A DNA stretch of 44,401 bases from an uncultured Rhodocyclaceae bacterium (GCA_964510915.1 CAZEDA010000002.1:1-44401), one strand, 5' to 3'. Counted from the first letter of the stretch, positions 3-26,811 are shown. The notes: generated by a model from the letters alone, not told the origin. Translations and numbers: made by a program.

Positions 3-1178
3 GACCCGGACCACTTCCTGCGGTTTGCCCGTCGGCGGTGGCCTTCCGCCATGGCGGGGGATTTCCTCCCCCGGGCCACCTACGGAGACTACCTGGAGCG
101 CCTCCTCCGGGACGCTGTGCGGGCGTGTGCGGGCACTGCCGAATGCATCGAGGATTCGGTCGACGGGATTCACCCTGGAGGCCCCAGTGACCGGTTTCAC
201 GTCGCTCTCCGTTCGGGCAGGCGTCTGGAAGCCGACTCGGTCGTGCTGGCGACCGGCAACTTCCCGCCAGCGGATCCCCTCGACCGGTTCCCTGCGCCGT
301 CCGATGCGACCCGTTATGTGCGGGATGCCTGGGCCCCGGGTGCGCTCTCCGGCGTCATGTCGGGAGAGCGGATCCTGCTGATCGGCTCCGGGCTCACTGC
401 GCTGGACGTCGCCCTGTCGGTTCACGCGAGGGGGGCGGGCCACATCGACTGCGTGTCTCGTCACGGCTGGACGCCTCTGGCCCATCGTGTGCCGACGCTG
501 CCCTCCCGCGCGACACCGGTGCAGGAGCGCATCCTGGCCGTGCCGCCGACAGTGCGCGGCTATCTCCGCTGTCTGCGCGACACCGCCGCAGAGGTCGAAC
601 GTGATCATGGGCAGGACTGGCGGGATGTCGTAGGCGGGATCCGTCCGATCACACCCCGCCTCTGGGAGCGGCTGCCACTCGCGGAAAAGCGGCGCTTCCT
701 CCGTCATCTGCGAACGCTGTGGGACGTCCACCGGCACCGGTGTGCGCATACCGCGGCGACGTCGTTTACCGGCCTGGTCGCGCAGGGGCTGCTCGACATG
801 CATGCCGGACGGATCGCCGCCGTATCGTGGGAAAGCGATGGCGTGGAGGTGGTGCTGCAGGGCCGGGACGGCAGCTCCGTGGTCCTGCGAGCGGACCGCA
901 TCGTCAACTGCACCGGGCCTCAAGGCGATCCCGCGAGGATCGACGACCCGCTGGTGAAGGCGCTCGTCGCCGGCGGAACGATCGTCCCGGACGACCTCGG
1001 GTTGGGCATCGCCACCGACGCCGACGGGCAGGCCGTCGATGCGAACGGCCACGTCGTCCGGGGCCTCTTCGTCGTGGGCCCGGCCCTGCGGGCCCGTGAC
1101 TGGGAGGCGACGGCAGTCCCGGAGCTCCGTGTCCTGGCGGAACGTACCGCCGCTGCGGTTTTGCAGACCACCTCCTGA
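3..1178 (+). CDS. FAD/NAD(P)-binding oxidoreductase (YdhS-like family), 5' end outside window
   Basis: ORF 51..1178 stays open in the same frame to the window edge (DPDHFLRFARRRW precedes the first Met). It has an internal dinucleotide-binding motif, ILLIGSGLTALDVALSV. The N-terminal GxGxxG expected for this family is absent, so the gene is truncated at its 5' side. Confidence 0.65.
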   Translation, partial: DPDHFLRFARRRWPSAMAGDFLPRATYGDYLERLLRDAVRACAGTAECIEDSVDGIHPGGPSDRFHVALRSGRRLEADSVVLATGNFPPADPLDRFPAPSDATRYVRDAWAPGALSGVMSGERILLIGSGLTALDVALSVHARGAGHIDCVSRHGWTPLAHRVPTLPSRATPVQERILAVPPTVRGYLRCLRDTAAEVERDHGQDWRDVVGGIRPITPRLWERLPLAEKRRFLRHLRTLWDVHRHRCAHTAATSFTGLVAQGLLDMHAGRIAAVSWESDGVEVVLQGRDGSSVVLRADRIVNCTGPQGDPARIDDPLVKALVAGGTIVPDDLGLGIATDADGQAVDANGHVVRGLFVVGPALRARDWEATAVPELRVLAERTAAAVLQTTS

Positions 1179-1296: not shown

Positions 1297-2802
1297 ATGC
1301 CGAAAGCATCGATCGATGTGCTGATGGTCAATCCGGGCAGCCGGACAGCCGTCTACCAGAAGCTGGGAGACACCTTTTCCGCCATCGAGCCGCCGTCACT
1401 GGCCGGCCTGTTCGCCGAATACCTCCGCCGCAAGGGCATGTCGGTCGCGATCATCGACGCGCCCGCCCACAATCTGAGTCCCGAGGACGTCGCGCGCAGC
1501 GTGCGGGAGGATTTCGACCCCGCGCTCATCGTCATGGTCGTCTACGGCTTCCAGCCTTCCGCGTCCACGCAGAACATGCCTGCCGCCGGTGAGACATGCC
1601 GGGCCATCAAGGCGCTCGATCCCGGATACCGGATCATGATGACCGGCACCCATCCGGCGGCCCTCCCGGAAAGAACGATGCGGGAGGAGGACATCGACTA
1701 CGTGTGCGACCGCGAAGGGCCGGAGACGATCCTCGCGACAGTCCAGGCCATCAAGCAGCGCGCCACCGATCTCACGCACATTCCCAGCCTCTGGTACCGG
1801 CAGGACGGCGCCATCCGCTCCAACGCGCCCGGTCCCCTCATGGACGATCTCGACAACGAGATGCCCGGTGTGGCCTGGGACCTGCTGCCGATGGAGAAGT
1901 ACCGCGCCCACAACTGGCACTGCTTCGAGCACATCGACCAGCGCAGCCCGTACGTGTCGATGCATACCAGCCTCGGCTGTCCTTACAAGTGCACCTTCTG
2001 CTGCATCAACGCGCCCTTCGGCAAGCCTTCGTATCGCATGTGGTCCCCGGACAGTGTCATCCGCGAGATCGACATCCTCGTCAACAAGTACGGCGTCAAG
2101 AACATCAAGTTCGTCGACGAGATGTTCGTGCTCAACAAGGCTCACGTCATCGGCATCTGCGATCGCATCATCGAGCGCGGCTACGACCTCAACATCTGGG
2201 CATACGCCCGGGTCGACACGGTGAAGGACGAATTCCTCGACAAGCTGAACCGCGCCGGCTTCCGCTGGCTGGCGCTCGGCATCGAATCCGGCAGCAAGCA
2301 CGTGCGGGATGGCGTCGAGAAGGGACGATTCGGTTCGGCAGAGATCATCCAGGTGGTCCGCAAGATCCAGGATGCCGGAATGAACGTGATCGGCAACTAC
2401 ATCTTCGGCCTGCCGGACGACACCTACGAGTCCATGGAGGACACGCTCAACCTCGCCATCGAGGCCAACTGCGAGTTCGCGAACTTCTACTGCGCCATGG
2501 CGTACCCGGGCTCCAAGCTCTACGGTCTTGCCGAGGCCAACGGGTGGGATCTGCCACCGACCTGGATCGGGTACTCACAGCACAGCTACGAGTGCTTCCC
2601 GCTGCGGACGGACGCTCTCACGAACGCGCAGGTGCTCAAGTTCCGGGACGAGGCCTTCCATCGCTATTTCACGAATCAGCGCTATCTGGATCTCGTGGAG
2701 AAGAAGTTCGGCCCGAAGGTCCTCGCCCATGTTCGCGAGATGACCGCGATCAAGCTGCGGCGCCAGCTCTACGCCGAGGATGCCCTGGCCGTACCCGCCT
2801 GA
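1297..2802 (+). CDS. B12-binding (class B) radical SAM enzyme
   Basis: The ATG at 1297 (MPKASIDVLMVNPG) is preceded by GGGAGA. The N-terminal Rossmann-like cobalamin-binding region (VAIIDAP...IVMVVYGFQPS) is followed by the radical SAM cluster motif CPYKCTFC (CxxxCxxC). The 5' part of track ORF 1039..2802 overlaps the upstream gene and has junk composition. Confidence 0.9.
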   Translation: MPKASIDVLMVNPGSRTAVYQKLGDTFSAIEPPSLAGLFAEYLRRKGMSVAIIDAPAHNLSPEDVARSVREDFDPALIVMVVYGFQPSASTQNMPAAGETCRAIKALDPGYRIMMTGTHPAALPERTMREEDIDYVCDREGPETILATVQAIKQRATDLTHIPSLWYRQDGAIRSNAPGPLMDDLDNEMPGVAWDLLPMEKYRAHNWHCFEHIDQRSPYVSMHTSLGCPYKCTFCCINAPFGKPSYRMWSPDSVIREIDILVNKYGVKNIKFVDEMFVLNKAHVIGICDRIIERGYDLNIWAYARVDTVKDEFLDKLNRAGFRWLALGIESGSKHVRDGVEKGRFGSAEIIQVVRKIQDAGMNVIGNYIFGLPDDTYESMEDTLNLAIEANCEFANFYCAMAYPGSKLYGLAEANGWDLPPTWIGYSQHSYECFPLRTDALTNAQVLKFRDEAFHRYFTNQRYLDLVEKKFGPKVLAHVREMTAIKLRRQLYAEDALAVPA

Positions 2803-2859
2803 TCGCACAGCGGTACGGGTGCGCATCGGACTGAACAACCGGTTGCAGGTAGCTGAACG

Positions 2860-3855
2860 TTGATCATCACAAGAACACCCTTTCGAATCTCCTTCTTCGG
2901 CGGCGGAACCGACTATCCCGCGTGGTACAGGAACAACGGCGGGGCCGTGCTTGCGACGACGATCGACAAGTACTGCTATGTGTCCTGCCGCTACCTGCCG
3001 CCGTTCTTCGAGCACAAGCACCGCATCGTCTACTCGAAGATCGAGAACGTGCAGTCGGTCGACGAGATCGTCCACCCGGCGGTCCGCGCGATCCTCGCGG
3101 ACATGGGGCCCGACCGCGGGCTGGAGATCCACCACGATGGCGACCTGCCTGCGCGTTCCGGCCTCGGTTCGAGTTCCTCGTTCACCGTCGGGCTCGTCCA
3201 CACGCTGATGGCACTGCAGGGCAAGTACGCCTCGAAGGATTTCCTTGCCGCGCAGGCCATCCGCCTCGAACAGGACGTGATGAAGGAGCATGTCGGCTCG
3301 CAGGACCAGGTGTCCGCGGCCTACGGCGGGTTCAACATCATCGAGTTCACACGGGACGATCACTTCATCGTGAGCCCGATGATCCTGCCGCGGGGGCGCA
3401 CCGAAGAACTCCAGAGCCATCTGATGCTGTTCTTCACCGGGTTGTCCCGGTTCGCGTCGGACGTCGCGAAGTCCAAGATCGACAACTTTGGCAAGAAGGA
3501 AAAGGAGCTCACCCGCATGGGGGAGATGGTGACGGAAGCCATCATGATCCTTCAGGGCCAGCAGAGCTCCGTGCTCGAGTTCGGGCAGCTGCTCGCCGAA
3601 GCCTGGGAGTACAAGCGCTCGCTGTCGGACAAGGTGTCCACGCCCGAGATCGACGAGATCTACACGGCGGGCCGCCGCGCCGGCGCCATTGGCGGAAAGC
3701 TGCTCGGCGCGGGCGGCGGGGGATTCCTGCTGCTGTTCGCCAAGCCGGAGGACCAGCCTGCAGTACGCGCTGCGCTGAAGAACCTGGTGCACGTGCCTTT
3801 CCGGTTCGAGAACGCCGGCAGCCGGGTCGTGCTTTACCAGCCGAACGGCCTCTGA
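2860..3855 (+). CDS. GHMP-family sugar kinase (COG2605 type; HddA/WcbL-like D-glycero-alpha-D-manno-heptose 7-phosphate kinase candidate)
   Basis: TTG start. The N-terminus MIITRTPFRISFFGGGTDYPAWY is characteristic of this kinase family. It carries the GHMP motif II LPARSGLGSSSSF and the C-terminal GKLLGAGGGGFLLLF. Confidence 0.9.
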   Translation: MIITRTPFRISFFGGGTDYPAWYRNNGGAVLATTIDKYCYVSCRYLPPFFEHKHRIVYSKIENVQSVDEIVHPAVRAILADMGPDRGLEIHHDGDLPARSGLGSSSSFTVGLVHTLMALQGKYASKDFLAAQAIRLEQDVMKEHVGSQDQVSAAYGGFNIIEFTRDDHFIVSPMILPRGRTEELQSHLMLFFTGLSRFASDVAKSKIDNFGKKEKELTRMGEMVTEAIMILQGQQSSVLEFGQLLAEAWEYKRSLSDKVSTPEIDEIYTAGRRAGAIGGKLLGAGGGGFLLLFAKPEDQPAVRAALKNLVHVPFRFENAGSRVVLYQPNGL

Positions 3856-3905
3856 GCCTCGGCGACATCCCACCAGTCACGGTTCGATCGTTCAGGGAGC
3901 ATCGA

Positions 3906-4931
3906 TTGATTCGCTATACGTACGAGGGACGCGGTTTCCAGGACTGGACCGCACGCCCGCTGCCGCTGGAACCCGACGGCCTGAGGGCGCTGCTTCGGGA
4001 CATGGTCCGCATCCGCGTGATCGAGGAAGAGATCGAGAAGCGCTATCACCAGGACCAGATGAAGACGCCGATCCATCTCGTCATCGGTCAGGAGGCGACC
4101 GCGGTGGGGTTCTGCGCGGCACTCACGCGAGAGGATCTGCTCTACAGCGGGCACCGCACTCACGGGGCCTATCTCGCCAAGGGCGGCAGTCTGGAATCGA
4201 TGCTGTGCGAGATGCATTGCCGGATCAATGGCTGCGCCGGGTCGCGTGGCGGCTCGATGCATCTCATCGACAAGAGCGTCGGGATGGTCGGCACGTCCGC
4301 CATCGTCGGTGGAGCGGTGCCCATCACGGCAGGCGCGGCGCTGTCCCTCAAGATGCGCAAGTCCGACCGCGTGGCTGCGGTGTTCCTCGGTGACGCCACC
4401 ACGGAAGAAGGCGTGGTTTCGGAAACGCTCAACTTTGCCGCGCTGAAGCGCCTGCCGATGATCTTCTTCTGCGAGAACAATTTCTACTCGGTGCAGTCGC
4501 CGCTCGTCACTCGTCAGCCCGGCCGTGATCTCACCCGCTGGGCGGCGGGGCACGATGTCGCCAGCGTGAAGGTCGACGGTACCAATGTTCTGGCCGTATA
4601 CGAAGCCGCCGTGCAGGCGGTCGAACGCGCGCGATCCGGCGGTGGCCCCACCTTCATCGAGGCCCGCGTGTACCGCTACCGGGCGCATGGCGGATCGGGC
4701 GACGACAGCAAGACGGGCTACCGGGATCTCGAGGAAGTGGCGCACTGGCAGAAGGTGGATCCGATCGACACCTACACGGATTTCCTGCTGGGCAAGGGGC
4801 TCATCGATGGCAGTACGCGGGAGCAGATGGCGGCGGCGGCACTGATCGAGACCGAGCGCGCCTTCGAGATGGCGCTCGCCAGCCCGAACCCCGAAGAGAA
4901 GGATCTCTACACCCATGTCTACAGCGACTGA
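3906..4931 (+). CDS. Thiamine-diphosphate-dependent dehydrogenase/transketolase-like E1 component, alpha subunit
   Basis: ThDP-binding motif GDATTEEGVVSETLNFAALKRLPMIFFCENN (GDG..NN type), plus IHLVIGQEATAVG and SRGGSMHL. The proposed TTG start at 3906 has GGGAG 7 nt upstream. The track ORF 2922..4931 is a run-on through the kinase gene. The start codon remains uncertain; an internal ATG (MVRIRV) is the alternative. Confidence 0.85.
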   Translation: MIRYTYEGRGFQDWTARPLPLEPDGLRALLRDMVRIRVIEEEIEKRYHQDQMKTPIHLVIGQEATAVGFCAALTREDLLYSGHRTHGAYLAKGGSLESMLCEMHCRINGCAGSRGGSMHLIDKSVGMVGTSAIVGGAVPITAGAALSLKMRKSDRVAAVFLGDATTEEGVVSETLNFAALKRLPMIFFCENNFYSVQSPLVTRQPGRDLTRWAAGHDVASVKVDGTNVLAVYEAAVQAVERARSGGGPTFIEARVYRYRAHGGSGDDSKTGYRDLEEVAHWQKVDPIDTYTDFLLGKGLIDGSTREQMAAAALIETERAFEMALASPNPEEKDLYTHVYSD

Positions 4932-4945
4932 TAAGGGGCCTTGCC

Positions 4946-5983
4946 ATGCCGTGGGATGAAGGACTCGTCAATTCGCTCGTGTATGAAGGCCCCGATCCCT
5001 CCGAGGGACGGGTATTGAGCTACGTGAAGGCCGTGAACGAGTCGCTGTCCCTGGCGCTGGAACACGACCCCGGCGTATTCGTGCTGGGACAGGGCGTAGA
5101 CGACCCGAGTGCGATGTTCGGCTGCACGCGCGGACTCCAGGAAGTCTTCGGACCCGAACGGGTGTTCGATACCCCCGTGGCCGAGGAGTCCATGATGGGG
5201 ATGTGCACCGGCGCTGCGATGAACGGCATGCGCCCGGTCTACATGCACAACCGCCCCGATTTCATCCTGCTCGCGTTCAACCAGCTCGTGACCCATGCGT
5301 CCAAGTTCCACTTCATGGACAACGGCCAGACGACTGTGCCGATGGTCGTCTGGGCGGCGATCGGTCGAGGCTGGGGGTCCGGCGCCCAGCATTCCCAGGC
5401 CATCCAGGGGCTGCTCATGGGCGTTCCCGGTCTCAAGATCGTGATGCCCAGCACGCCGGCAGATGCGAAGGGACTCCTGCTGTCTGCCATCGCCGACAAC
5501 AATCCCGTGCTGTTCTTCGAGCATCGCTGGCTCATGAAGAAGGATGGCATTGTGCCGGAGGGCTTCTATCAGGTGCCGCTCGGCAAGGGCGTTTACCGGC
5601 GGCGCGGCAAGGACCTGACCGTGGTCGGCGCCTCCCACGCCATCGAGCTGGCGGGGCAGGCGGCCACCCAGCTTGCGAAGGAAGGCATCGATGTCGAAGT
5701 TATCGACCTTCGCACGCTGAAGCCGCTCGACGAAGCGATCATCGAGGAATCCCTAAGTAAAACTGGACGTCTCGTGGTCGTGGATACGGGCTGGGCGATG
5801 GGCGGCGTCTGTGCCGAGATCGGCTGCCTGGCCGCGGAGAAGTGGTTCCACCTGCTGAAGGCGCCGATCCGCCGCATCGGGTTGCCGGATATCCCGACCC
5901 CGGCGGGGTTCACGCTGGAGCAGTTCTACTACCCGAGCGTCGATCGGATGGCGAGCACGATGCGCGAGGCCGCTGGCCGCTGA
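4946..5983 (+). CDS. E1 component beta subunit (transketolase-like pyrimidine-binding plus C-terminal domains)
   Basis: Typical E1-beta sequence: VFVLGQGVDDP, FDTPVAEESMMGMCTGAAMNGMRPV, NPVLFFEHRWL, EGIDVEVIDLRTLKPLD. It starts 15 nt after the alpha-subunit stop. Confidence 0.9.
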   Translation: MPWDEGLVNSLVYEGPDPSEGRVLSYVKAVNESLSLALEHDPGVFVLGQGVDDPSAMFGCTRGLQEVFGPERVFDTPVAEESMMGMCTGAAMNGMRPVYMHNRPDFILLAFNQLVTHASKFHFMDNGQTTVPMVVWAAIGRGWGSGAQHSQAIQGLLMGVPGLKIVMPSTPADAKGLLLSAIADNNPVLFFEHRWLMKKDGIVPEGFYQVPLGKGVYRRRGKDLTVVGASHAIELAGQAATQLAKEGIDVEVIDLRTLKPLDEAIIEESLSKTGRLVVVDTGWAMGGVCAEIGCLAAEKWFHLLKAPIRRIGLPDIPTPAGFTLEQFYYPSVDRMASTMREAAGR

Positions 5984-7048: not shown

Positions 7049-7753
7049 TCATTTCCAGCAGATCACTTCGCGAATGAACTGGAAGTAGTAGGCGGCCCCC
7101 CACTTCAATACCTGGAGTTTTCGCGTGCCTCCGATTCGCGGGGGCTCGTCGCCAGGAATCTCGGCAATCTTCAGCTTTCGCTTGGCTGCGCGTACGGACA
7201 GGAGAGGCTCCCAGCTGATCTTCGTACGGAACAACCGTTCGGCCGTGACGTAACCTTCGTCCCTGTCCAGTTCGAGCTCGTGCACAAGACTCTTCCGGTA
7301 CGCGCGGAAGATGACCATGGCGTCCGTGTAGCGGCCGCCATGCAGGAAATTCACCGTTCGAGTGAAGAGCCAGTTCCCGAAGCCGGTCACGAAGCTGTCA
7401 TCGGTGCTCTTTGCACCATCGAGGTACCGCGAGGCAATGACCATGTCGAATCCCTCGGCCATCTTGCCGATCAGATCGGGAATGAGTGCGGCGATCGAAT
7501 TGCCGTCCGGGCTGAACGTGATGATCACGTCTCCGATGACCAGCGGCATCACCTCCGTGTACGCATGCCGGAATCCGCGCTGTTTCTGTACATACACCTC
7601 GTAGCCGTTCTCACGGGACCACTCGATGGTACCGTCGGTCGAGCCGCCGTCGACGACGATGATCTGATCGCACCAGTTTCTGTCGACCTGGGGCATGATG
7701 GCCCGCATGCCGTCGATCTCGTTCAGTGTCATGACCAGCAAGGTGGTTCGCAT
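7049..7753 (-). CDS. GT2 glycosyltransferase of the polyprenyl-phosphate sugar synthase type (DPM1/GtrB/ArnC-like)
   Basis: MRTTLLVMTLNEIDGM...IIVVDGGSTDGTIEW...ITFSPDGN...VIASRY...RAYRK...EIPGDEPPRIGG. This architecture and size are typical of Und-P/Dol-P sugar synthases. The longer track ORF to 7864 adds a low-complexity N-extension. Confidence 0.8.
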   Translation of the reverse strand: MRTTLLVMTLNEIDGMRAIMPQVDRNWCDQIIVVDGGSTDGTIEWSRENGYEVYVQKQRGFRHAYTEVMPLVIGDVIITFSPDGNSIAALIPDLIGKMAEGFDMVIASRYLDGAKSTDDSFVTGFGNWLFTRTVNFLHGGRYTDAMVIFRAYRKSLVHELELDRDEGYVTAERLFRTKISWEPLLSVRAAKRKLKIAEIPGDEPPRIGGTRKLQVLKWGAAYYFQFIREVICWK

Positions 7754-7918
7754 GGGTTGGCTGATATCGGTCTGGTTGGTAACGGTTCGCCATTCTTGAA
7801 AGCGGCCCCTTGGAATGCCTGCCGTTGGGGCCGGTCGTTCCCGGAAAGGCGGGAGTGATTGCACAGCAGGGGATCGGCCAGCGGCGACTGGCAGGCCTTT
7901 CTGAATCGGAGCAAAGGC

Positions 7919-8701
7919 TCATTTCGCCAGATATCTTCGGAGCACCGGCCTCCCGAGCACGAGCAAAGTGATGATGGCCGAGGCGGTCATGACATTCACG
8001 AACAGGTCTCTCGCCTCCCCGGTCAGGACTACACTTCCCACGGAGGCGCCGATGGCGGACACGAAGAGGGCGGGCGGTGCGACGAACAGAGCTGTGGCCC
8101 AGGTGTACTGCCAGAGGCCGATCGTGCAGATGCCGAAGAACCAGTTCAGAGGGCCGAAAGGCAGCACAGGATTGATCCTGGCGAAGGCGACGGCTTTCCA
8201 TCCGGTCCGCGAGATCTCCTCGCTCAGCCAGTCCCATGCCTTTCCCCGCAGGGCACGCTGGACATGCTCCCTCAGCAGATGCCTTCCGCAGTTGAACGCA
8301 ATCAGCGCGCCGAGCGTTCCCCCCAGGACCGTATAGACCGTACCCATGCCGATGCCCCACAGGAACCCGGCGGCCAGATTCATCGGCAGTGTCGGTACCA
8401 TGGTCAGGACCATCAAGGCATACACGGCCACGAATATGATCGGGGCGGCCGTCGGATGTTGTTCGAGCAGTCGGACAAGGTGTGTCGGATCCAGCCAGCC
8501 CACATGTTTCGCCCATAGAACACTTGCGAGCGTCGCCGCGAGCATCAGAGCGAGCCAGAAGCGCTTCCGACCCAGAATGCTGGCGAGAAAGCGGAACTCA
8601 GCCTTGGCTCTCTGCATGGACTTTCCGTCATCCTCCGCATGCGACCCGGCTGGATCTGGTTCGGAAGGCGGAGGCCCGAGCGATTCGAGTTCACGCTTCA
8701 T
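7919..8701 (-). CDS. TVP38/TMEM64 (DedA-superfamily, SNARE-associated domain) integral membrane protein
   Basis: Several hydrophobic helices, and a core FLWGIGMGTVYTVLGGTLGALIAFNCGRHLLRE...RINPVLPFGPLNWFFG typical of TVP38/TMEM64. The start is uncertain: ATG 8701 (MKRELESL) or ATG 8617 (MQRAKAEF). The extension to 8836 looks non-coding. Confidence 0.8.
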   Translation of the reverse strand: MKRELESLGPPPSEPDPAGSHAEDDGKSMQRAKAEFRFLASILGRKRFWLALMLAATLASVLWAKHVGWLDPTHLVRLLEQHPTAAPIIFVAVYALMVLTMVPTLPMNLAAGFLWGIGMGTVYTVLGGTLGALIAFNCGRHLLREHVQRALRGKAWDWLSEEISRTGWKAVAFARINPVLPFGPLNWFFGICTIGLWQYTWATALFVAPPALFVSAIGASVGSVVLTGEARDLFVNVMTASAIITLLVLGRPVLRRYLAK

Positions 8702-8822
8702 TCGCACTCGCCCGTGTGGACAGGGCCAAGGGGAACCGCCTTGAGGGGTTCGCCTGCCCGACAGGCAAAGCGAGAATGCGCAACATCGGCCAATACCAGG
8801 AGATCCGAACTCGGTCGCGCGA

Positions 8823-10499
8823 TCATCTTGCGCCAAACCAGCGACGTATGGCGCGCAGCGGCGCGGTCAACTGCCAGGAATGGGAGGAACGAATCTGCGC
8901 CAATTGCGCGCGCAGGTCCTCCACAAGGGCGTTGGAGGCGGCCAGCGTGCCCGCTCTGTCCGTGATCTCCTGGCGCAGCGCATCGATTTCGCGCTTCCGC
9001 AAGTCGACCTCGGTGGCAAGTCGGCGGTGCTCTGCGTCCACCGTGGCCAGGCGCTCCCGAAGATCCGCCTGCCGGGAGTGCTCCCGCGTGAGCTCGTCGC
9101 GAAGCGTGGCAACGTCACGATGGCTATCGGCAGCACGAACGTCTGCGGCGTCCCGCGCAACTCGCTCCCGATCAAGTGCTTCATCCAGCCGCGTGATCAC
9201 ACTCGCATCGTGCAGATGCCTCTGGTGAGCGGACGAGAGATCGCTTTCCAATGCCGCGATTCGTCTGTCCTTGGCGACGCTTTCCGAGGCGAGATTCGAC
9301 AGAGTGTCTTCGAGACGAGACTCGACTTTGCGCAGTTCCAGGTCTCGGCTGGCGAGTGAACCCTCCAGCGTTTCGATTCGTGCCAGCAACTCGCCGATCG
9401 GGCGGGTCGCCTCGGTGGCATGTCGGTTGGCCTCCACGACATCCGAAGCCAGGCGTTCGAGACCGGATTCCAGTCCGCCCAGTTTCGCGACGGTCTGTCT
9501 CGATACCTCCAGGTCGGCGTCCGCACGCGTCCGCAGAGCGTCCTGGTCTTCCTTCAGTCGGTAGAACAGCGCGCGGACTGCACTCGGCGGAAACAGAAAG
9601 TCGGTACTGATCGGGACGGGTAGCGCATCCGGCCCCCTCGCCGGTTCAGCGGATGTTCGTGGGGGAAAACTCAGCGGACCGGAGTCAGCCGGTGCAGAGA
9701 GAGTCTCGAGGCACTCCTGGAAGGAGTGCGCATCCTGTTCGGCCAGAGGCCGAGCGGCCAGAGCCTGAAGAGCCTCGAACAACGATCGGGTGCGCTCGTC
9801 CAGCGTGCCTTCGAACCGCTGGCGAATGAGGGAGGCATCCGGAAATGTCTGATCGAGCTTTGCACCGATCACACCTTCCAGTTGGACGTGGGTTTCTTTC
9901 CGAAGCAGCAGTTCCTGGGAGACGAAACAAAGGCGCTGCCCTCTGGCCCCCAGATTCAGCAGGCGCAGGTGCACGTTTCGCCAAGCTTCGTACAGGTCTG
10001 CAACACTCAGCCGGAGGTCGGCGAGATACTGTGCGCTCTGGGTTTCCTTCAGGATGCTGCTGATCACGCTGCCGGGGTCCCGGAACACGCAGATCGCGAC
10101 TGCGTCGGGCACCGCAGCGCTCCACGCTTCCAGGGTGAAGCTGAAGCGCGGGTCCTTGAAGGCAAACGGTCGGCGTTTCGTCAGGGCTTCGATGGATCTG
10201 CGGTCGTCTTCCGTCGCCGCACATGGCAGCTGGGCTGGCAGTCTGGCCAGCCAGAATTGTCCGGGCCGATAGTAGGCATCCATGAAGCCGGCCGCCTCCG
10301 GGCCGAACGCCTGGCGTACCGACGCAAGGATGATCCGCTCGTTCAGGGAATTGATGGCCCAGTTCTCGAAGAACCCCTTGGGATTCGCATCGCGCGGCGG
10401 ATAAAGGTCATCCCCCTGAAAGTAGCCTGCTCCCGCGAACATGCCTGCGAGCATGCTGGTGCCGCTGCGGCCCGAACCGCAAATGAAGACATCTCTCAT
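8823..10499 (-). CDS. Sulfotransferase-domain protein with a long C-terminal coiled coil
   Basis: The N-terminus MRDVFICGSGRSGTSMLAGMF is a PAPS 5'-phosphosulfate-binding P-loop. From roughly residue 320 to 535 the sequence is heptad-like and rich in Leu/Glu/Arg/Asp/Ala (LERLASDVVEANRHATEATRPIGELLARIETLEGSLASRDLELRKVESRLEDTL...). It ends in the tail IRSSHSWQLTAPLRAIRRWFGAR. Confidence 0.85.
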   Translation of the reverse strand: MRDVFICGSGRSGTSMLAGMFAGAGYFQGDDLYPPRDANPKGFFENWAINSLNERIILASVRQAFGPEAAGFMDAYYRPGQFWLARLPAQLPCAATEDDRRSIEALTKRRPFAFKDPRFSFTLEAWSAAVPDAVAICVFRDPGSVISSILKETQSAQYLADLRLSVADLYEAWRNVHLRLLNLGARGQRLCFVSQELLLRKETHVQLEGVIGAKLDQTFPDASLIRQRFEGTLDERTRSLFEALQALAARPLAEQDAHSFQECLETLSAPADSGPLSFPPRTSAEPARGPDALPVPISTDFLFPPSAVRALFYRLKEDQDALRTRADADLEVSRQTVAKLGGLESGLERLASDVVEANRHATEATRPIGELLARIETLEGSLASRDLELRKVESRLEDTLSNLASESVAKDRRIAALESDLSSAHQRHLHDASVITRLDEALDRERVARDAADVRAADSHRDVATLRDELTREHSRQADLRERLATVDAEHRRLATEVDLRKREIDALRQEITDRAGTLAASNALVEDLRAQLAQIRSSHSWQLTAPLRAIRRWFGAR

Positions 10500-13873: not shown

Positions 13874-14911
13874 CTAGTCTCCGATGGCGTCGGCTACGTC
13901 CGCCAGCCATGCCTCTACCAGGACCAGTTCGTCCGATGGGAAGAACCCTTCGGAGCACAGGCGCCGGTAGCAATGGAGCAGGGCCTCTCCGACTGTGAAT
14001 TCCTCGAGCCTGACCGAGTCGAGCGCGTCGGTGAAGTCTTCAGCGCGCAGGTAGGCGTCCAGTTCCTGTCGGAAATCATCGAGGAGATCGTGGGGATGGC
14101 GCACCTGTTCGACTGTGGCCGTCGTGAAGAGAAGGTGCCAGCCCTTCGAACCGGTGATCCGCTGGGCAACAAGGCCCCGCCAGATGTCCGTCAGCCGGAA
14201 GCTGCAGTTGGCGGGAAGATACATGAGCGCGAAGGCGTCCGGCCACCACGCCGTGTTCTGACTGTTGATCGGGCATCGCGCACCCGGTGCGAGTGCCACC
14301 GGAGGATGATCCGCAAACACGAAGCGCCCACCGTGGACGAGCCGATGAATGGCATCGACATCGGGATCTCCATTGGCCAGTCCCTGCTGGATCGGGCAAT
14401 AGACCGGTTCGAGCGTATTCGAGAGGAAGGGCTGGTCATCTCGTATGTGTCGCAGAGGAAAGCCTCGCGGCCAGATCGGCGAGTCGCTGAACGAGCGATA
14501 GACGTTGAACCATCCTTTCTCCCGAACCAGCCGTGCCGGGACCGTGTGGTTTCCGGGTGCGAAGAAACCCTCCAGCGGCGCGTTGTCATCGTCGGTTTCG
14601 ACGATACGGTCCGGTCGAGACGCCATGGCTTCCAGATAGCCGAGGTTCTTGCGGGCGTAGTGGTTTCGCGGCAGCTTCGTCGCCAGTCGCCAGCGGGAAC
14701 CCTCCTGGTCGGCGAGGCTCAGGTACGAGGCGGCCTCGAGGCGAAAATCGGAAGGGGTCTTCGCGTCGCCGACGATCCAGGCCTTCCAGTCAGCGGCTCG
14801 CACGCCGCGCATGGTCTCTTCGAGCGCCTTCGTGGGCGCATGCACAGTGGTCACGACGAGCGCGGTCTGGCCTGCGGAGGCCTGCCTGGGCCCTGATCTA
14901 GGCGCTCGCAT
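13874..14911 (-). CDS. STELLO-like (DUF288-type) glycosyltransferase-family protein
   Basis: ALVVTTVHAPTKALE...WKAWIVGDAKTPSDF...SYLSLADQ...NHYARKNLGYLEAMASRPDRIVETDDDN follows the conserved STELLO pattern (V.GD.KTP..W, YLS...Q, Y.RKN.GYL.A, DDDN). The ATG at 14911 overlaps the wzt stop by 14 nt. The track ORF runs on to 15007. Confidence 0.75.
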   Translation of the reverse strand: MRAPRSGPRQASAGQTALVVTTVHAPTKALEETMRGVRAADWKAWIVGDAKTPSDFRLEAASYLSLADQEGSRWRLATKLPRNHYARKNLGYLEAMASRPDRIVETDDDNAPLEGFFAPGNHTVPARLVREKGWFNVYRSFSDSPIWPRGFPLRHIRDDQPFLSNTLEPVYCPIQQGLANGDPDVDAIHRLVHGGRFVFADHPPVALAPGARCPINSQNTAWWPDAFALMYLPANCSFRLTDIWRGLVAQRITGSKGWHLLFTTATVEQVRHPHDLLDDFRQELDAYLRAEDFTDALDSVRLEEFTVGEALLHCYRRLCSEGFFPSDELVLVEAWLADVADAIGD

Positions 14912-16295
14912 GGGATCGTTCGTGGTCTGTACGATGGTCAGTCGCCGGGCGCAAGGCGAGTGTCGCGGGCCCTCCGGAGGCGTCGAAATAGCCGAACGAC
15001 ACGTCATGCTCCACCGGGAGAACTCGAAACATCGTGCGGTCGAGGACGCGATGCAGGCATTCCGGCTCGTGATCGGACCAGATGCCGCCGCCTACGAAAT
15101 AGGCTCCCGGCAACAGATCGAGCTTGAAGTCGAAGACCACCTCGAATTCCGTGTCAGAGCCAACTTCCGCGATGGAGAGCCCCGTGCCCGGATGGCGTTG
15201 GCCGGTGATGCCATGGCCGCTCCCGAGGCGGATATGGATGCCGAAGTGAACCGCTCGGCAGGGCTTCAGAAACCGCCCGCGACTGACGAACTGGTACCTT
15301 TGTCCGCGCTGCAGGACATTCACCGTCCTGCCGGAAAGGTCCCGAATCAGGATGTCCGTGATCTCGGCACCCTGCGATTCGTAGATCACCGTGGATTCCG
15401 GCGCCAGCGACGGATCGAACCAGGCCGCTTGTGCTTGGGTGGCGGGTTCTTCGCTCCCGCCAGTTTCGGGGATCGGATCCGATGTCTCGACCCGTTCGCG
15501 GGCATCCGCAAGGCGGAAGGATCTGATGCTTTCCAGGACCTCCTGCTGCTGGCTGGGTGGCGTGTAGATCAGCTTCTGGTAGGCCTGAATCGCATTCAGC
15601 GGAATGCCTGAATAGATCAGCTCGCCGCCGTGAAGAACATGCGCGGTATCGCACCAGTCGATGATGTGCTGCGCCACATGCGATACCAGGATGATGGCGG
15701 TGCCGCGTTGCTTGAGGGCTTCCATGCGCGCGAAGCACTTTCTCTGGAAGCGTTCGTCTCCGACGGCCAGCGCCTCGTCAACCACGAGTACGTCAGGATC
15801 TATGCAGGCCTGTACGGCAAATGCCAACCGAACGAACATTCCACTCGAATAGCTGCGCACCGGCTGGTCGATGAACTCGCCAATGTCGGCGAACTCCTCG
15901 ATCCTCGGAAACACGGCGTCAGTCTCGGCACGCGACAAACCCAGGATGGCGGCGTTCAGGTAGGCGTTCTCTCGCCCGGTGAACTCGGGATTGAATCCGG
16001 CGCCCAGTTCGAGCAGCGCGGCAAGGCGTCCATGGACCTGTACCGAGCCCTGGGTCGGGGACATCGTGCCGCAAATGATCTGAAGGAGCGTCGACTTCCC
16101 GGCGCCGTTGCAGCCGATGATCCCGACCGTCTCTCCTTTTCGAATCTCGAGGGAGACATCCCGCAATGCCCAGTACTCGCGGTACTTGGGCGACCTGCCG
16201 AAACCGAGCAGCTGAGCGAGGCGTGCGTAGGGGCCGTCGAACACGTGGAAGCATTTCCCCACGCCGTCCACACGAATCGCGAGTTCAGAGGACAT
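14898..16295 (-). CDS. wzt: Polysaccharide ABC transporter ATP-binding protein Wzt with an extended C-terminal domain
   Basis: Walker A GCNGAGKST, signature YSSGM, Walker B LVVDEALAVGD. At 465 aa it has about 200 residues beyond the NBD, with a beta-rich sequence (VIYESQGAEITDILIRDLSGRTVNVLQRGQRYQF...FEVVFDFKLDLLPGAYFVGGGIW) of the kind seen in Wzt C-terminal glycan-binding domains. Confidence 0.9.
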   Translation of the reverse strand: MSSELAIRVDGVGKCFHVFDGPYARLAQLLGFGRSPKYREYWALRDVSLEIRKGETVGIIGCNGAGKSTLLQIICGTMSPTQGSVQVHGRLAALLELGAGFNPEFTGRENAYLNAAILGLSRAETDAVFPRIEEFADIGEFIDQPVRSYSSGMFVRLAFAVQACIDPDVLVVDEALAVGDERFQRKCFARMEALKQRGTAIILVSHVAQHIIDWCDTAHVLHGGELIYSGIPLNAIQAYQKLIYTPPSQQQEVLESIRSFRLADARERVETSDPIPETGGSEEPATQAQAAWFDPSLAPESTVIYESQGAEITDILIRDLSGRTVNVLQRGQRYQFVSRGRFLKPCRAVHFGIHIRLGSGHGITGQRHPGTGLSIAEVGSDTEFEVVFDFKLDLLPGAYFVGGGIWSDHEPECLHRVLDRTMFRVLPVEHDVSFGYFDASGGPATLALRPATDHRTDHERSHASA

Positions 16296-17073
16296 CGGAG
16301 AACCCTTTTCGAGTCTTCTCGAACCACATGAAGCCGAGCCTGGCCACGACCACGCTTACCACGGCGTACATGAACAACCGTGCCCACGCGGGTTGGTTCC
16401 CGACCAGGGCAACGTCTCGCACCTGTTCAATGATGAAGGTGAGCGGGTTCAGAAACAGCAGAGGACGGATCTCCTTCGGCAAGACGGATGCAGGATAGAA
16501 GATCGGACTCAGAAACAGGAGGATCGTGGTGAGAATGCCTACGATTTGCCCCACATCCCTGACAAACGTGCCGACCGAAGCCAGGAACCATGCAGCACCA
16601 ACGGTGAGCACCACCAGGGGAGCGATGACGATCGGCAAGTAGAGGGCGGTCCACGGCAGGTGTCCCCGGACCAGAAGGGAGGCGAGGAGCAGCACTGCGA
16701 AGCTGATCGCAGTGTGTATCAGCGCGGCGCCCATGGTCACCCAGGGCAGAACCTCTAGCGGGAAGACGACGCGCTTCACGTAGCTGGGATTGGCAACAAT
16801 CAGGGTCGGTGCTCTCGATACGCAGTCGGCGACCATGGAGTGCATGACCAGTCCGGCGAACAGAAACAGTGCAAAGTCTCCCGACGAGTCGGACTCCGGC
16901 GTCCATCGGGCCCGGAAGATGAAGCTGAAGACGAACGTGTAGATCGCCAGCATTACGAGCGGCAGCACGAAGGACCAGACGACGCCCAGGACGGAGCCAC
17001 GATAGCGTCCAACCACCTCTCGTCTGGTCATCTGCCAGACCAGGTATCGATGGCGCCAGAGCGAACTCAACAT
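16285..17073 (-). CDS. wzm: Polysaccharide ABC transporter permease (ABC-2 type) Wzm
   Basis: MLSSLWRHRYLVWQMTRREVVGRYRGSVLGVVWSF is the canonical ABC-2 N-terminus. There are six hydrophobic segments. It overlaps wzt by 11 nt. Confidence 0.9.
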   Translation of the reverse strand: MLSSLWRHRYLVWQMTRREVVGRYRGSVLGVVWSFVLPLVMLAIYTFVFSFIFRARWTPESDSSGDFALFLFAGLVMHSMVADCVSRAPTLIVANPSYVKRVVFPLEVLPWVTMGAALIHTAISFAVLLLASLLVRGHLPWTALYLPIVIAPLVVLTVGAAWFLASVGTFVRDVGQIVGILTTILLFLSPIFYPASVLPKEIRPLLFLNPLTFIIEQVRDVALVGNQPAWARLFMYAVVSVVVARLGFMWFEKTRKGFSDVL

Positions 17074-24530: not shown

Positions 24531-25880
24531 TTACCTCCGCAGCTTCCGCGCGATCCGCCGGCGCAGGAAAAGATAGCCCATGCCGAGCGCCCGGGCGAAG
24601 AAGGTGACGGCGCCGGCCAGGGGAAGAGCAACATGAACGGTCCAGGGGAGGGCCCGATGGAGCCGATCCCGCACAATCTCCAAAGACGCACCCTGTACTT
24701 CGAATGCTTCGCGCCGTGATGCCAGAGACGGATGCCCGAACACCCGCGGATAGGCGCGGAACCCGTCTTCGGAAGGCTCCACGACGAACCCGTGCCAGAG
24801 GTCCCGTCGGACCGAGCCCTGGAGCCAGCGTTTGCCGACTCGAAGCGACTCGTGGCGCCACGAAGATCGGTAGTCTGCGGAAATCACGAATTCTTCCTGG
24901 CGCGACTGCGACCCGCTCTCTTCGCGCAGTCTGCGGATGGACGCGTTCTCGAGCAATGGCAGCACACGGCCGCTCGTGAGCGCGTCCAGCGCGGTCGTCG
25001 AGACCTGACGGCCATCGTGGGGGCCGAGATAGTTGTCAGCGCCCGCCTGGCCGGGATGCCAGGTGTGGTAGAGAAACTCGTGGCGATGCCAGACCTCGCT
25101 CAAGCCGCGGTTCACAAGTCGGAACGTCATCTCGTACGGGCCGCAGACATGCCCCAGGAAATCGATGTGCTCATCGGCGCCGCCGATTGCGATGAGGTCG
25201 CTTCGCCTCGCGCACATGCAAGCTCCGAAATTGCGGTTGTGTATCGGGTCGCTCTCGTCCGCCAGGCCGCTCGTGAGATCGCCGGCCCGATTGATGCACC
25301 CTCGGCCCGTCACGTCCTCGAAAGAAGGAAAGGCGAAGGGATACAGATCCCGTCGGATGTTTCGAAACTGGTCGATGTGAAGGACGATGTCGGGCGAGGC
25401 ATCGAACGCATCGATGATCGCGCGGATGAATCCGGGCTTCACCATTGCATCGGAGTCGCAGATCACGCAGATGTCACCGCGGGCAACGAAGATTCCGGCG
25501 TTGTACATCAGGTGCTTGTGGTAATAGCACTGCTCAGGCATCTGTAGCAGGACCCAGGCGTCCACCTGTTGCTCGAACTTGCCCACCGCTTCCGAGACCC
25601 GGGAGTAGTACTCCACCACGATGACTTCGAACTGATCCCGGTCGAGATCCTGCGCACTCAGGTAGTGCAGAAGGTGAAAGCTCTCCCGGACACTCCAGTC
25701 GAGCAGGATCAGACTGACTCTTGGACGCTCCCGCCGGCTTCGCCGGATGAAATGCAGCCCGGGTTCCTCGGCCATGGCGGGTATGCCTTCGCGAGCGGCC
25801 GGGATGCCGGACGGCTCGGGAAGATCCCGGACCGACGGCGTGTTCAGCGGCAACGGAAAGGACGTGGTCGCGTCAGACAT
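24531..25880 (-). CDS. GT2-family glycosyltransferase with a C-terminal membrane anchor
   Basis: RVSLILLDWSVRESFHLLHYL...FEVIVVEY...NAGIFVARGDICVICDSDAMV (DxD). The C-terminal hydrophobic helix VHVALPLAGAVTFFARALGMGYLFL is followed by RRRIARKLRR. Its ATG overlaps the upstream stop by 8 nt. Confidence 0.85.
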   Translation of the reverse strand: MSDATTSFPLPLNTPSVRDLPEPSGIPAAREGIPAMAEEPGLHFIRRSRRERPRVSLILLDWSVRESFHLLHYLSAQDLDRDQFEVIVVEYYSRVSEAVGKFEQQVDAWVLLQMPEQCYYHKHLMYNAGIFVARGDICVICDSDAMVKPGFIRAIIDAFDASPDIVLHIDQFRNIRRDLYPFAFPSFEDVTGRGCINRAGDLTSGLADESDPIHNRNFGACMCARRSDLIAIGGADEHIDFLGHVCGPYEMTFRLVNRGLSEVWHRHEFLYHTWHPGQAGADNYLGPHDGRQVSTTALDALTSGRVLPLLENASIRRLREESGSQSRQEEFVISADYRSSWRHESLRVGKRWLQGSVRRDLWHGFVVEPSEDGFRAYPRVFGHPSLASRREAFEVQGASLEIVRDRLHRALPWTVHVALPLAGAVTFFARALGMGYLFLRRRIARKLRR

Positions 25881-26811
25881 TCCCGTACAGGTTGTTCTTG
25901 ATCATCGTGAAGCCCTTGATGAGTTCCGTGATGCCGGCGTCCAGCGACATGGAGGTCCGGAAGCCGGTGGCTTCCAGCTTGGCGTTCGAGACGATGTAGT
26001 TGCGCTGGTCAGGGTCCTTGCCGACGGGGGCGTCGATGAACACGAACTGTGGCAGTTGCTTCTGGATGTGCTCGCACAGTTCCTTCTTCGAGACGTTGGC
26101 ATCGGACAGCCCCACGTTGTAGATCTGGCCCTTCATCTTCTCGAAGTTCGCGAGCCCGTGCTGGAACACGCGGGAGACGTCCCGCACGTGGATGTAGTTG
26201 CGTTTGAAGGCGCTCTCGAACAGCACCACGAAGCGGTCGTGCACCGCGCGATAGGTGAAGTCGTTCACCAGCAGGTCGATGCGCATGCGTGGCGACATGC
26301 CGAACACGGTGGCGAGCCGGAAGCTGATGGCGTTCTCGCGCTGCATCAGTTCCTTCTCGACTTCGACCTTTTCCTTGGCGTAAAGGGAGATCGGTCGCAG
26401 CGGCGACTCTTCCGTGCAGAAGTTGTTCTCGTCGCCGGTGCCGTAGGCGCTGTTGGTGGTCGGCATCAGGATGCGCTGTTCGCGCGAGAGCAGACGCAGC
26501 ATCAGGGAGATCGCGTCGTGATTCGTGGTCGTCGCACCCACCGGGTCCAGCGTGCAGAGCGGTGCGCCGACCAGCGCAGCGAGGGGGATCACCACGTCGG
26601 CCTTCGCGATCAGCGGCGCCATGGTGCTCTCGATGCGGATGTCTCCCTTCACGACGTCGAAGCCGGGGTGGTGGCAGACGTGGTTGAGGCTCGCCTGCTT
26701 GAACATGAAGTTGTCCACCACCGTGACCTTGTGGCCCGCGGCCAGCAGGTCGGGCACCATCGTGGAGCCCAGGTATCCGGCACCGCCCGTGACGAGAATG
26801 TTGTAGGTCAT
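25873..26811 (-). CDS. Extended SDR, NAD-dependent sugar epimerase/4-reductase
   Basis: ILVTGGAGYLGS Rossmann motif and catalytic SLYAKEK (YxxxK). It sits immediately downstream of the nucleotidyltransferase and the 3-dehydratase-like gene. Confidence 0.9.
   Translation of the reverse strand: MTYNILVTGGAGYLGSTMVPDLLAAGHKVTVVDNFMFKQASLNHVCHHPGFDVVKGDIRIESTMAPLIAKADVVIPLAALVGAPLCTLDPVGATTTNHDAISLMLRLLSREQRILMPTTNSAYGTGDENNFCTEESPLRPISLYAKEKVEVEKELMQRENAISFRLATVFGMSPRMRIDLLVNDFTYRAVHDRFVVLFESAFKRNYIHVRDVSRVFQHGLANFEKMKGQIYNVGLSDANVSKKELCEHIQKQLPQFVFIDAPVGKDPDQRNYIVSNAKLEATGFRTSMSLDAGITELIKGFTMIKNNLYGNV

Follow-up and report, generated by a model that had tools for sequence, protein, structure and literature searches.

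An orphan E1 alpha/beta pair and a B12-binding radical SAM enzyme belong to a widespread module that probably makes a branched sugar from GDP-heptose for envelope glycans

We analyzed a stretch of 44,401 nucleotides from an uncultured Rhodocyclaceae bacterium (GCA_964510915.1 CAZEDA010000002.1:1-44401; this whole stretch is called the window below), in which four genes at positions 1297-5983 encode a B12-binding radical S-adenosylmethionine (SAM) enzyme, a GHMP sugar kinase and the alpha and beta subunits of a thiamine diphosphate (ThDP)-dependent E1 enzyme. These identities, proposed in an initial annotation made from the sequence alone, were confirmed by the Pfam domains, with E-values of 1e-10 to 5e-66 for the block (Table 1). 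The block makes up one half of a conserved module, probably devoted to GDP-heptose, whose other half lies further on in the window, at 25.9-33.9 kb. All four genes are on the plus strand, separated by 57, 50 and 14 nucleotides, and prediction of promoter-like and terminator-like sites gave none within 1297-5983. E1 alpha starts with a TTG at 3906, which we consider the true start because GGGAG is found on its 5' side and because the resulting length of 341 residues matches that of the homologues. The pair displays the domains of 2-oxoacid dehydrogenase E1 subunits (E1_dh in alpha, Transket_pyr and Transketolase_C in beta), and its ThDP motif, previously reported as intact, aligns as GDA...ENN and is invariant across the family.

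The E1 pair had also been described as lacking E2 lipoyl-acyltransferase and E3 neighbours, and every context that we searched agrees with this description. No lipoyl, 2-oxoacid_dh or dihydrolipoamide dehydrogenase architecture was found by Pfam among the genes of the window. The upstream side was searched in a 98%-identical strain, L087, in which the four genes share 96-99% identity with those of the window: the 8.6 kb preceding its radical SAM gene hold neither an E2 nor an E3 gene. None was found either in the related loci L001, L003 and L004 or in an island of Solidesulfovibrio magneticus described below; as the contig is metagenome-assembled, the search could not be extended to the whole genome. 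The two subunits score under the cut-offs of the NCBIfam pyruvate dehydrogenase (PDH) equivalogs (283 bits for alpha with a cut-off of 394, 280.5 bits for beta with a cut-off of 321). Their closest solved relatives in a PDB search are the E1 components of PDH and of the branched-chain 2-oxoacid dehydrogenase (BCKDH), at about 165 bits. The missing partners, the scores below cut-off and the glycan context together support the proposal that this pair works outside any 2-oxoacid dehydrogenase complex. E1 beta shares about 80% identity with the module copies of L001, L003 and L004 and 58% with that of S. magneticus, and it has a detectable similarity to DXS in NCBIfam.

The module partners in the window are separated from the four-gene block and inverted. 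Among them, a short-chain dehydrogenase/reductase (SDR) matches PDB entry 6VO6 over its full length. The 6VO6 chain belongs to a cluster of 313-aa Campylobacter jejuni proteins and we take it to be Cj1427, the GDP-heptose C4-dehydrogenase. The function of Cj1427 involves the conversion of alpha-ketoglutarate to L-2-hydroxyglutarate and, combined in vitro with a C. jejuni C3-dehydratase, the enzyme yields GDP-D-glycero-3-deoxy-4-keto-heptose (PMC10680097).

A second partner is a DegT-family protein whose best PDB match is ColD (2gms, 179 bits). In the alignment its segment ...YYYAHHMSTIEGG pairs with ...SFYSHHIATMEGG of ColD, and a histidine falls at the position of ColD H188. In the resulting motif, ...AHHMSTIEGG, this histidine replaces the lysine that binds pyridoxal 5'-phosphate (PLP), and the same replacement of the PLP lysine of aminotransferases is seen in the window protein and its relatives, which read ...SHH(I/M)STxEGG or ...AH(I/M)xTxEGG. 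We also considered that the window protein, only 30-34% identical to the other module copies, might be a non-orthologous aminotransferase; this was rejected, as the alignment shows that all of them are of the His type. On their active-site sequence, the DegT proteins of the module are thus predicted to be C3-dehydratases dependent on pyridoxamine 5'-phosphate (PMP).

Other partners have counterparts in related loci. The window NUDIX hydrolase is 47% identical to those of the L001 and L004 modules, and NUDIX genes are also found in the S. magneticus and Azospirillum lipoferum versions. GmhB passes two curated cut-offs (186.5 bits for NF006506 with a cut-off of 178, 158 bits for TIGR00213 with a cut-off of 149.6) and shares 59% identity with the module HAD gene in L004. 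The L001 homologue of the protein at 34001-35365 stands after a NUDIX gene. The small family 2 glycosyltransferase (GT2) shares 62% identity with the first of the two GT2 enzymes in the S. magneticus island, whose gene is located beside a VTT gene; the best NCBIfam matches of the window GT2, AglJ and a dolichyl-phosphate hexose transferase, are both weak. This likeness to polyprenyl-phosphate transferases suggests polyprenyl phosphate as the carrier of the finished sugar and the periplasm as the site of its transfer. The VTT protein of the window is 27-36% identical to those encoded by the genes flanking the module in L001 and S. magneticus. No GmhA (SIS) gene was found in the window, and GmhA is presumably encoded elsewhere in the genome.

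Table 1. Positions of the module genes and of the other genes discussed, counted from the first letter of the window
Feature	Positions	Strand	Basis or remark
FAD/NAD(P)-binding oxidoreductase	51-1178	+	PF13454; N-terminus cut off at window start; module membership uncertain
B12-binding radical SAM enzyme, HpnJ/BchE-like, 501 aa	1297-2802	+	Pfam B12-binding and Radical_SAM
GHMP sugar kinase, HddA/WcbL-like; probable D-glycero-D-manno-heptose-7-P anomeric kinase	2860-3855	+	Pfam GHMP_kinases_N/C
ThDP-dependent E1 alpha, 341 aa, without E2/E3 partner	3906-4931	+	Pfam E1_dh, 4.9e-66
ThDP-dependent E1 beta, 345 aa	4946-5983	+	Pfam Transket_pyr and Transketolase_C
Small GT2	7049-7864	-	resembles dolichyl/polyprenyl-phosphate hexose transferases
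VTT/DedA-family membrane protein	7919-8836	-	Pfam VTT_dom
Gmd-like 4,6-dehydratase, 334 aa	10567-11571	-	317 bits, Gmd equivalog cut-off 415
Cj1427-like SDR	25873-26811	-	full-length match to PDB 6VO6/6VO8, E 6e-108, 53% identity
HddC-like sugar-1-phosphate nucleotidyltransferase	26846-27550	-	best NCBIfam HddC, 160 bits, cut-off 300
ColD-type PMP-dependent C3-dehydratase (predicted), DegT family, 389 aa	27557-28726	-	likely start 28726
NUDIX hydrolase	29668-30435	+	Pfam NUDIX; true start probably later
GmhB heptose-1,7-bisphosphate 7-phosphatase (HAD)	33345-33875	+	above curated NCBIfam cut-offs
Protein accompanying the module, without firm Pfam family	34001-35365	+	36-38% identity over full length to the L001 469-aa gene

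Species-representative genomes were scanned with E1 alpha, the best 80 loci, almost all from metagenome-assembled genomes, were annotated against the module proteins and 83 non-redundant loci were counted. E1 alpha has relatives in at least 588 species-level genomes, and thousands of metagenomic homologues were found, those with 65-96% identity being abundant. Loci with a radical SAM gene and a GHMP kinase gene near E1 alpha, which we call class I, make up 35 of the 83. E1 beta is present in 34 of these 35, a Cj1427-like SDR (at least 50% identity) in 31, a His-type DegT in 30 and a nucleotidyltransferase in 25; gene order is shuffled and the loci lacking a partner are mostly short contigs. 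The taxa represented include Burkholderiales, Vicinamibacterales, Nitrospinota, Bdellovibrionota, Myxococcales, Omnitrophota, Chloroflexota, Planctomycetota, Desulfobacterota and Paenibacillus. The radical SAM homologues of the related loci are 48-98% identical to the window enzyme, and their genes usually sit beside the kinase gene. The initial annotation had asked whether this four-gene neighbourhood recurs: it is conserved across phyla, always together with sugar-nucleotide or glycan genes.

The contigs of L001, L003 and L004 carry a recurring set consisting of the radical SAM enzyme, the GHMP kinase, E1 alpha and beta, DegT, the NTP-transferase, a 312-aa SDR, a DAO-family FAD oxidase and NUDIX, joined at times by a SIS-domain protein and a HAD phosphatase. 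In L001, genes for VTT/DedA, GT2 and DUF268 come after the module. A SIS (GmhA-like) gene lies inside the module in 8 of the 35 class I loci and also in S. magneticus. The DAO-family gene of L001 scores 349 bits with the equivalog of LhgO (L-2-hydroxyglutarate oxidase), above the cut-off of 299, and LhgO is encoded within the modules of L001, L004, L010, L022 and S. magneticus, where the PGAP annotation itself reads lhgO. Its presence fits Cj1427-type chemistry, because the recycling of L-2-hydroxyglutarate would otherwise have no obvious place in a sugar cluster. The window itself holds no gene of the LhgO/DAO family.

Two side observations were made on these loci. First, the module has genes of 5'-deoxyadenosine/methylthioadenosine (MTA) salvage on its flanks in two loci, one on a contig from a betaproteobacterium (L004 5983-6729 and 17918-20945) and the other in A. 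lipoferum 4B (L090 3745-6010). These genes encode a PNP_UDP_1 nucleosidase or MTA phosphorylase, an MtnA/IF-2B isomerase and a class II aldolase fusion, and may dispose of the by-product of the radical SAM enzyme. Second, another class of E1 alpha/beta pairs, with 43-50% identity and without the class I radical SAM enzyme or GHMP kinase, was seen in L051, L053, L054, L060, L062, L066, L084 and others. It adjoins SIS/HAD-type (GmhA/GmhB-like) genes and other SDRs, and its DegT is of the Lys type wherever the motif is readable. The only locus of this class that was fully annotated, in Lusitaniella (L060:6393-18650), encodes an HldE-like ADP-heptose enzyme, GmhB, SDRs, a Lys-type DegT aminotransferase, SAM methyltransferases and a different B12-binding radical SAM enzyme. 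This second class is probably another heptose-branching pathway, possibly leading to an amino-branched sugar.

Plasmid records were searched for the module in cultured organisms. Plasmid pDMC1 of S. magneticus RS-1 carries it as a compact island with transposases on both flanks, in the order VTT, GT2, GT2, radical SAM enzyme, NUDIX, GHMP kinase, E1 alpha, E1 beta, Fcl-like SDR, His-type DegT, Cj1427-like SDR, NTP-transferase, hypothetical protein, GT-C (PMT-like), two hypothetical proteins, LhgO and SIS. A. lipoferum 4B has the module as two separate blocks on one plasmid, the radical SAM and kinase genes lying about 22 kb from those of E1, SDR and DegT. The same organism encodes a 423-aa fusion of an HddC-like nucleotidyltransferase to GmhB (L090 11325-12596, annotated 'HAD-IIIA hydrolase'); two steps of GDP-heptose synthesis are therefore linked in a single protein. 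Plasmid p5 of A. argentinense Az39 (L089 9132-18017) bears, instead of E1 alpha/beta, a transketolase split into N- and C-terminal genes and a second cobalamin-dependent protein. These adjoin genes for the radical SAM enzyme, the Cj1427-like SDR and the GHMP kinase, in a region with many insertion sequence elements. Transketolase is another ThDP-dependent two-carbon transferase, and this non-orthologous replacement supports a role of the E1 pair in two-carbon transfer. Separately, Streptomyces griseofuscus plasmid pSGRIFU1 (L092 14004-19534) holds an orphan E1 alpha/beta pair whose alpha subunit is 47% identical to that of the window. It adjoins a condensation-domain protein in a polyketide synthase/nonribosomal peptide synthetase region with gamma-butyrolactone regulators, and was discarded as a parallel for sugar branching since its setting is not a sugar cluster.

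The nearest PDB relatives of the GHMP kinase are WcbL (4usm/4usk) and the heptose kinases 3k85 and 4n3o, with about 118-135 bits, and its best-matching NCBIfam family is HddA (133 bits, cut-off 600). It is 54-70% identical across phyla inside the module. Judging from these relatives, the kinase most likely takes part in building GDP-heptose.

The radical SAM enzyme matches the Pfam families B12-binding (1.2e-14) and Radical_SAM (2.4e-19) and has the cluster motif CPYKCTFC of CxxxCxxC type. Its highest NCBIfam scores are with HpnJ (179 bits, cut-off 578) and BchE (137 bits). The methylase families come lower, with 103 bits for PhpK, 98 for a family of C-methyltransferases acting on ribosomally synthesized and post-translationally modified peptides (RiPPs) and 63 for HpnR; the AprD4 diol-dehydratase family (PDB 6fd2) gives 85 bits. 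Every one of these matches falls under its curated cut-off. The initial annotation had favoured a GenK-type C-methylation, which these scores do not support, as the ring-forming HpnJ and BchE families outscore the methylases; by sequence, a ring-former is more likely than a GenK-type methylase. HpnJ and calditol synthase (Cds) are radical SAM enzymes implicated in the formation of cyclopentane carbocycles from sugars, to which both are tied genetically (PMC9092360). HpnJ, known from genetics without biochemical characterisation, is the top curated family for the window enzyme over its full length. The likeness stops at the distance between its HpnJ score and the cut-off given above and at the setting, no hopanoid or glycerol dialkyl glycerol tetraether (GDGT) context being present here.

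The four-gene block lies in a glycan locus, as had been described, with Wzm, a Wzt bearing a Wzt_C module, several GT2, a GT-C/PMT_2, methyltransferases, a sulfotransferase, the Gmd-like dehydratase and the ColD-type gene. GC content is 0.60-0.65 across this locus and 0.68-0.70 in its flanks. In L087 a full-length, 457-aa copy of the oxidoreductase truncated at the window start (L087 7111-8484) occupies the same position 5' of the radical SAM gene. This PF13454 protein was not seen in the other module loci. It was rejected as an E3, having no Pyr_redox_dim domain, and as an LhgO, having no similarity to the DAO proteins of the module. Further upstream, L087 has divergent heptosyltransferase-like and WaaA-like genes of the lipopolysaccharide (LPS) core, and downstream of E1 beta it diverges from the window. 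The four-gene block is therefore at the edge of a variable O-polysaccharide region adjoining LPS core genes.

The Gmd-like 4,6-dehydratase, which by its sequence could be a DmhA-type GDP-heptose 4,6-dehydratase instead of a true Gmd, is outside the conserved set of module genes. The gene at 8823-10499 (minus strand), near Wzm/Wzt (14898-17073, minus strand), encodes a 558-aa protein with a sulfotransferase domain at its N-terminus and a long coiled coil at its C-terminus; Wzt_C is a glycan-binding module. This arrangement resembles a WbdD-style chain-length terminator, which here would cap the O-polysaccharide with sulfate and not with methyl or phosphate. Between NUDIX and GmhB, a 950-aa protein (30469-33321, plus strand) is MurJ-like in its C-terminal half only, and no family match was found for its N-terminal part of about 480 aa. 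Finally, between the ColD-like gene and NUDIX (28905-29867, plus strand) lies a 320-aa open reading frame with a weak C-terminal SDR similarity (31 bits). It weakly matches the Fcl-like SDR of S. magneticus and may be a degenerate ColC/Fcl-like gene; apart from this remnant, no intact Fcl-like gene is present in the window.

Taken together, the enzyme set strongly suggests that the module makes GDP-heptose, oxidises its C4 and removes its C3 hydroxyl. By homology, GmhA (from elsewhere in the genome), the GHMP kinase, GmhB and the HddC-like transferase would first produce GDP-heptose. The Cj1427-like SDR would then oxidise C4, its bound NADH being recycled by alpha-ketoglutarate, a step suggested by strong homology and by the co-occurrence of LhgO in the relatives. 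The ColD-type enzyme, to judge from its homology and active-site histidine, would remove the C3 hydroxyl to give GDP-3-deoxy-4-keto-heptose. On this ketone, as the analogy to YerE and to the alphaKADH2 enzymes of actinomycetes suggests, E1 alpha/beta would act by decarboxylating pyruvate and adding the acetyl-anion equivalent to C4, which would become a tertiary alcohol carrying an acetyl group. The B12-binding radical SAM enzyme may next modify the branched sugar, speculatively by closing a ring through radical C-C bond formation, the reaction proposed for HpnJ, or by C-methylation. Because GT2, DedA/VTT and GT-C are conserved neighbours, the small polyprenyl-phosphate-type GT2 and DedA/VTT (with GT-C in relatives) would finally deliver the sugar to a periplasmic acceptor. 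We give a probability of roughly 55% to this reading as a whole, from GDP-heptose through a 3-deoxy-4-keto sugar, an acetyl branch added by E1 and a radical SAM modification to an envelope glycan.

The initial annotation had proposed that an E1 pair without E2/E3 branches a keto-sugar, and this core idea stands; its source of the acceptor is revised and its GenK methylation is not supported. It had derived the 4-keto acceptor from the 4,6-dehydratase and the ColD-type 3-dehydratase. The latter is retained as a partner (30 of the 35 class I loci); the former, lying outside the conserved set, is not. Since the substrate is defined by the Cj1427-like C4-dehydrogenase, the HddC-like transferase and GmhB, the acceptor is most likely GDP-3-deoxy-4-keto-D-glycero-heptose and not a 6-deoxy sugar made by a Gmd-like 4,6-dehydratase.

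Several points weigh against this scheme. All the roles of the module proteins are assigned from sequence and analogy, that of the radical SAM enzyme being speculative, and 6VO6 is taken to be Cj1427 in view of its membership of the C. jejuni cluster. The likeness of the E1 pair to alphaKADH2 enzymes is drawn from its subunit make-up and gene context. Neither the GHMP kinase nor the nucleotidyltransferase comes close to the HddA and HddC equivalog cut-offs and, as the kinase is about 60% identical within the module and only about 30% identical to known HddA, this enzyme may act on a different substrate. Lastly, an SDR resembling GDP-fucose synthase and ColC, with GDP-fucose synthases as its best matches, is present in 17 of the 35 class I loci. 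If it reduces C4, this carbon is unavailable for branching, and E1 alpha/beta might then act on another carbonyl such as a side-chain aldehyde, or the two C-C bonds might be formed in the reverse order.

This last point leads to the alternative that survives best, although we hold it to be unlikely. Here E1 alpha/beta would extend the chain or act on a carbonyl other than C4, for instance by acyloin condensation of hydroxyethyl-ThDP from pyruvate with a C7 or C6 carbonyl made by the radical SAM enzyme or another oxidase, while the Cj1427-like, ColD-like and Fcl/ColC-like trio would carry out a colitose-like 3-deoxygenation and reduction of the ring. The frequency of the Fcl/ColC-like SDR speaks for it, aldehydes are the classical acceptors of ThDP enzymes, and the match to AprD4 is detectable. 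On the other hand, the window has only the weak remnant at 28905-29867 to offer as a reductase, no dedicated enzyme of side-chain oxidation was identified, and a 3-deoxy-4-keto product is precisely the kind of acceptor for which YerE provides a precedent.

Branching might also precede activation. In this case the radical SAM enzyme and the GHMP kinase, possibly with E1 alpha/beta, would build an unusual sugar phosphate by condensing pyruvate with an aldose phosphate in the manner of DXS, followed by a radical rearrangement and an anomeric phosphorylation, the GDP-heptose enzymes being mere neighbours. The separation of the two nearly always adjacent genes from E1, SDR and DegT in A. lipoferum 4B is in line with such a division, as are the similarity of E1 beta to DXS and a kinase strongly conserved in the module and only distant from HddA. 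We nevertheless judge it improbable: SIS (GmhA-like), GmhB and HddC-like genes recur, the GHMP protein is the sole kinase candidate among the module genes, and the Cj1427-like enzyme with LhgO indicates a GDP-heptose intermediate. The nearest curated and solved relatives (PDH and BCKDH E1) and the automatic annotation of homologues as PDH or acetoin E1 would point to a common catabolic enzyme, the E1 of a pyruvate, acetoin or branched-chain 2-oxoacid dehydrogenase that lies in a glycan locus by chance and has its E2/E3 encoded elsewhere. This reading is highly improbable and essentially excluded by context, given the scores under the equivalog cut-offs, the lack of E2/E3 in all contexts examined including a self-contained, transposase-flanked plasmid island, the link to sugar-nucleotide genes across phyla and the substitution by a split transketolase in one relative.

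Returning to branching at C4 of an activated heptose, the scheme can be carried one step further, tentatively and with distinctly less confidence. The core formed by the C4-dehydrogenase, the C3-dehydratase, E1 alpha/beta and the HpnJ-like radical SAM enzyme may lead to carbocyclic nonoses of the caryose type (4,8-cyclo-3,9-dideoxynonose). ThDP chemistry would join C2 of pyruvate to C4, and the radical SAM enzyme would close the C7-C8 bond by addition of a carbinol radical to the acetyl carbonyl, as proposed for HpnJ/Cds. We counted the atoms along this route: a heptose is C7H14O7; the loss of 2H at C4 and the C3 deoxygenation give C7H12O6; the addition of C2H4O gives C9H16O7. An isomerising closure from C7 to C8 keeps C9H16O7 and results in 4,8-cyclo-3,9-dideoxynonose with no further redox step. 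The counted product has a tertiary hydroxyl at C4 and both a hydroxyl and a methyl at C8, which is the constitution of caryose. No extra reductase is required by this route, and the window has no intact one. Caryose is produced by Trinickia caryophylli. Its biosynthesis is stated to be unknown (PMC9092360). A link to bradyrhizose was also considered and dropped, as the paper on the O-antigen cluster of Bradyrhizobium reports no gene content to compare with.

Sugar-branching alphaKADH2 enzymes of the E1 type are an established class, known from the aldgamycin, kibdelomycin, paulomycin and avilamycin pathways, in which a sugar ketone receives an acetyl group derived from pyruvate and becomes a tertiary alcohol (PMC12247030, PMC4753412). 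For KbDH-alpha/beta the reaction has been demonstrated in vitro on ketone analogues (PMC12247030, PMC4753412, PMC9306805). Like AviB1/AviB2, Pau11/Pau12, the aldgamycin enzymes and KbDH-alpha/beta, the window pair consists of E1 alpha and beta without E2/E3 among genes for NDP-keto-sugars. These known systems belong to secondary-metabolite clusters of Gram-positive bacteria and act on NDP-deoxyhexoses or pentoses, whereas the module is found in envelope-glycan loci of Gram-negatives and many other phyla, with a predicted GDP-heptose scaffold and a coupled B12-binding radical SAM enzyme and GHMP kinase.

A second parallel is offered by YerE/YerF of yersiniose, ErwE and MMAR_2332, which make branched sugars of LPS. 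They share with the module the surface-glycan setting and, on the proposed reading, a 3-deoxy-4-keto acceptor obtained through a 3-dehydratase that depends on PMP, to whose C4 pyruvate contributes a two-carbon branch (PMC9306805, PMC12247030); the acceptor of YerE is CDP-3,6-dideoxy-4-keto-glucose (PMC12247030, PMC4753412). YerE is however a single chain of the acetolactate synthase/decarboxylase superfamily acting on a CDP-3,6-dideoxyhexose, where the module has an E1 alpha/beta heteromer, a predicted GDP-heptose scaffold, a 4-keto group that would be made by a C4-dehydrogenase and not by a 4,6-dehydratase, and no universal YerF-like reductase. The capsular GDP-heptose pathway of C. jejuni (HddA/GmhB/HddC, Cj1427, the C3-dehydratase and Cj1428) employs the same types of enzymes for synthesis, C4 oxidation and C3 dehydration, and the module relatives also carry an Fcl-like reductase (PMC10680097). 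It differs by the absence of any ThDP or radical SAM step, and its GDP-D-glycero-3-deoxy-4-keto-heptose was obtained only in vitro from mixed enzymes.

A literature search of incomplete coverage returned no published account of this gene combination, and nothing relevant on the biosynthesis of caryose, on pDMC1 or on LhgO in connection with heptose. The module joins known kinds of enzymes in an undescribed and very widespread envelope-glycan pathway, which probably adds a two-carbon branch to an activated heptose. Sugar branching by E1-type ThDP enzymes has so far been tied to actinomycete antibiotics, and branching in LPS was assigned to YerE-like enzymes in a 2025 review (PMC12247030); the module would extend the E1-type reaction to the heptoses of envelope glycans. 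It would also give GDP-3-deoxy-4-keto-heptose a natural role, explain why an L-2-hydroxyglutarate oxidase is encoded in glycan loci and offer a route to carbocyclic or branched higher sugars such as caryose (PMC9092360). S. magneticus RS-1 with pDMC1, A. lipoferum 4B and A. ramasamyi are cultured carriers, which makes the system experimentally tractable. Should the route to caryose-type sugars prove true, uncultured bacteria from many phyla would commonly bear carbocyclic sugars on their envelopes, and such sugars would no longer be the curiosity of a single plant pathogen.

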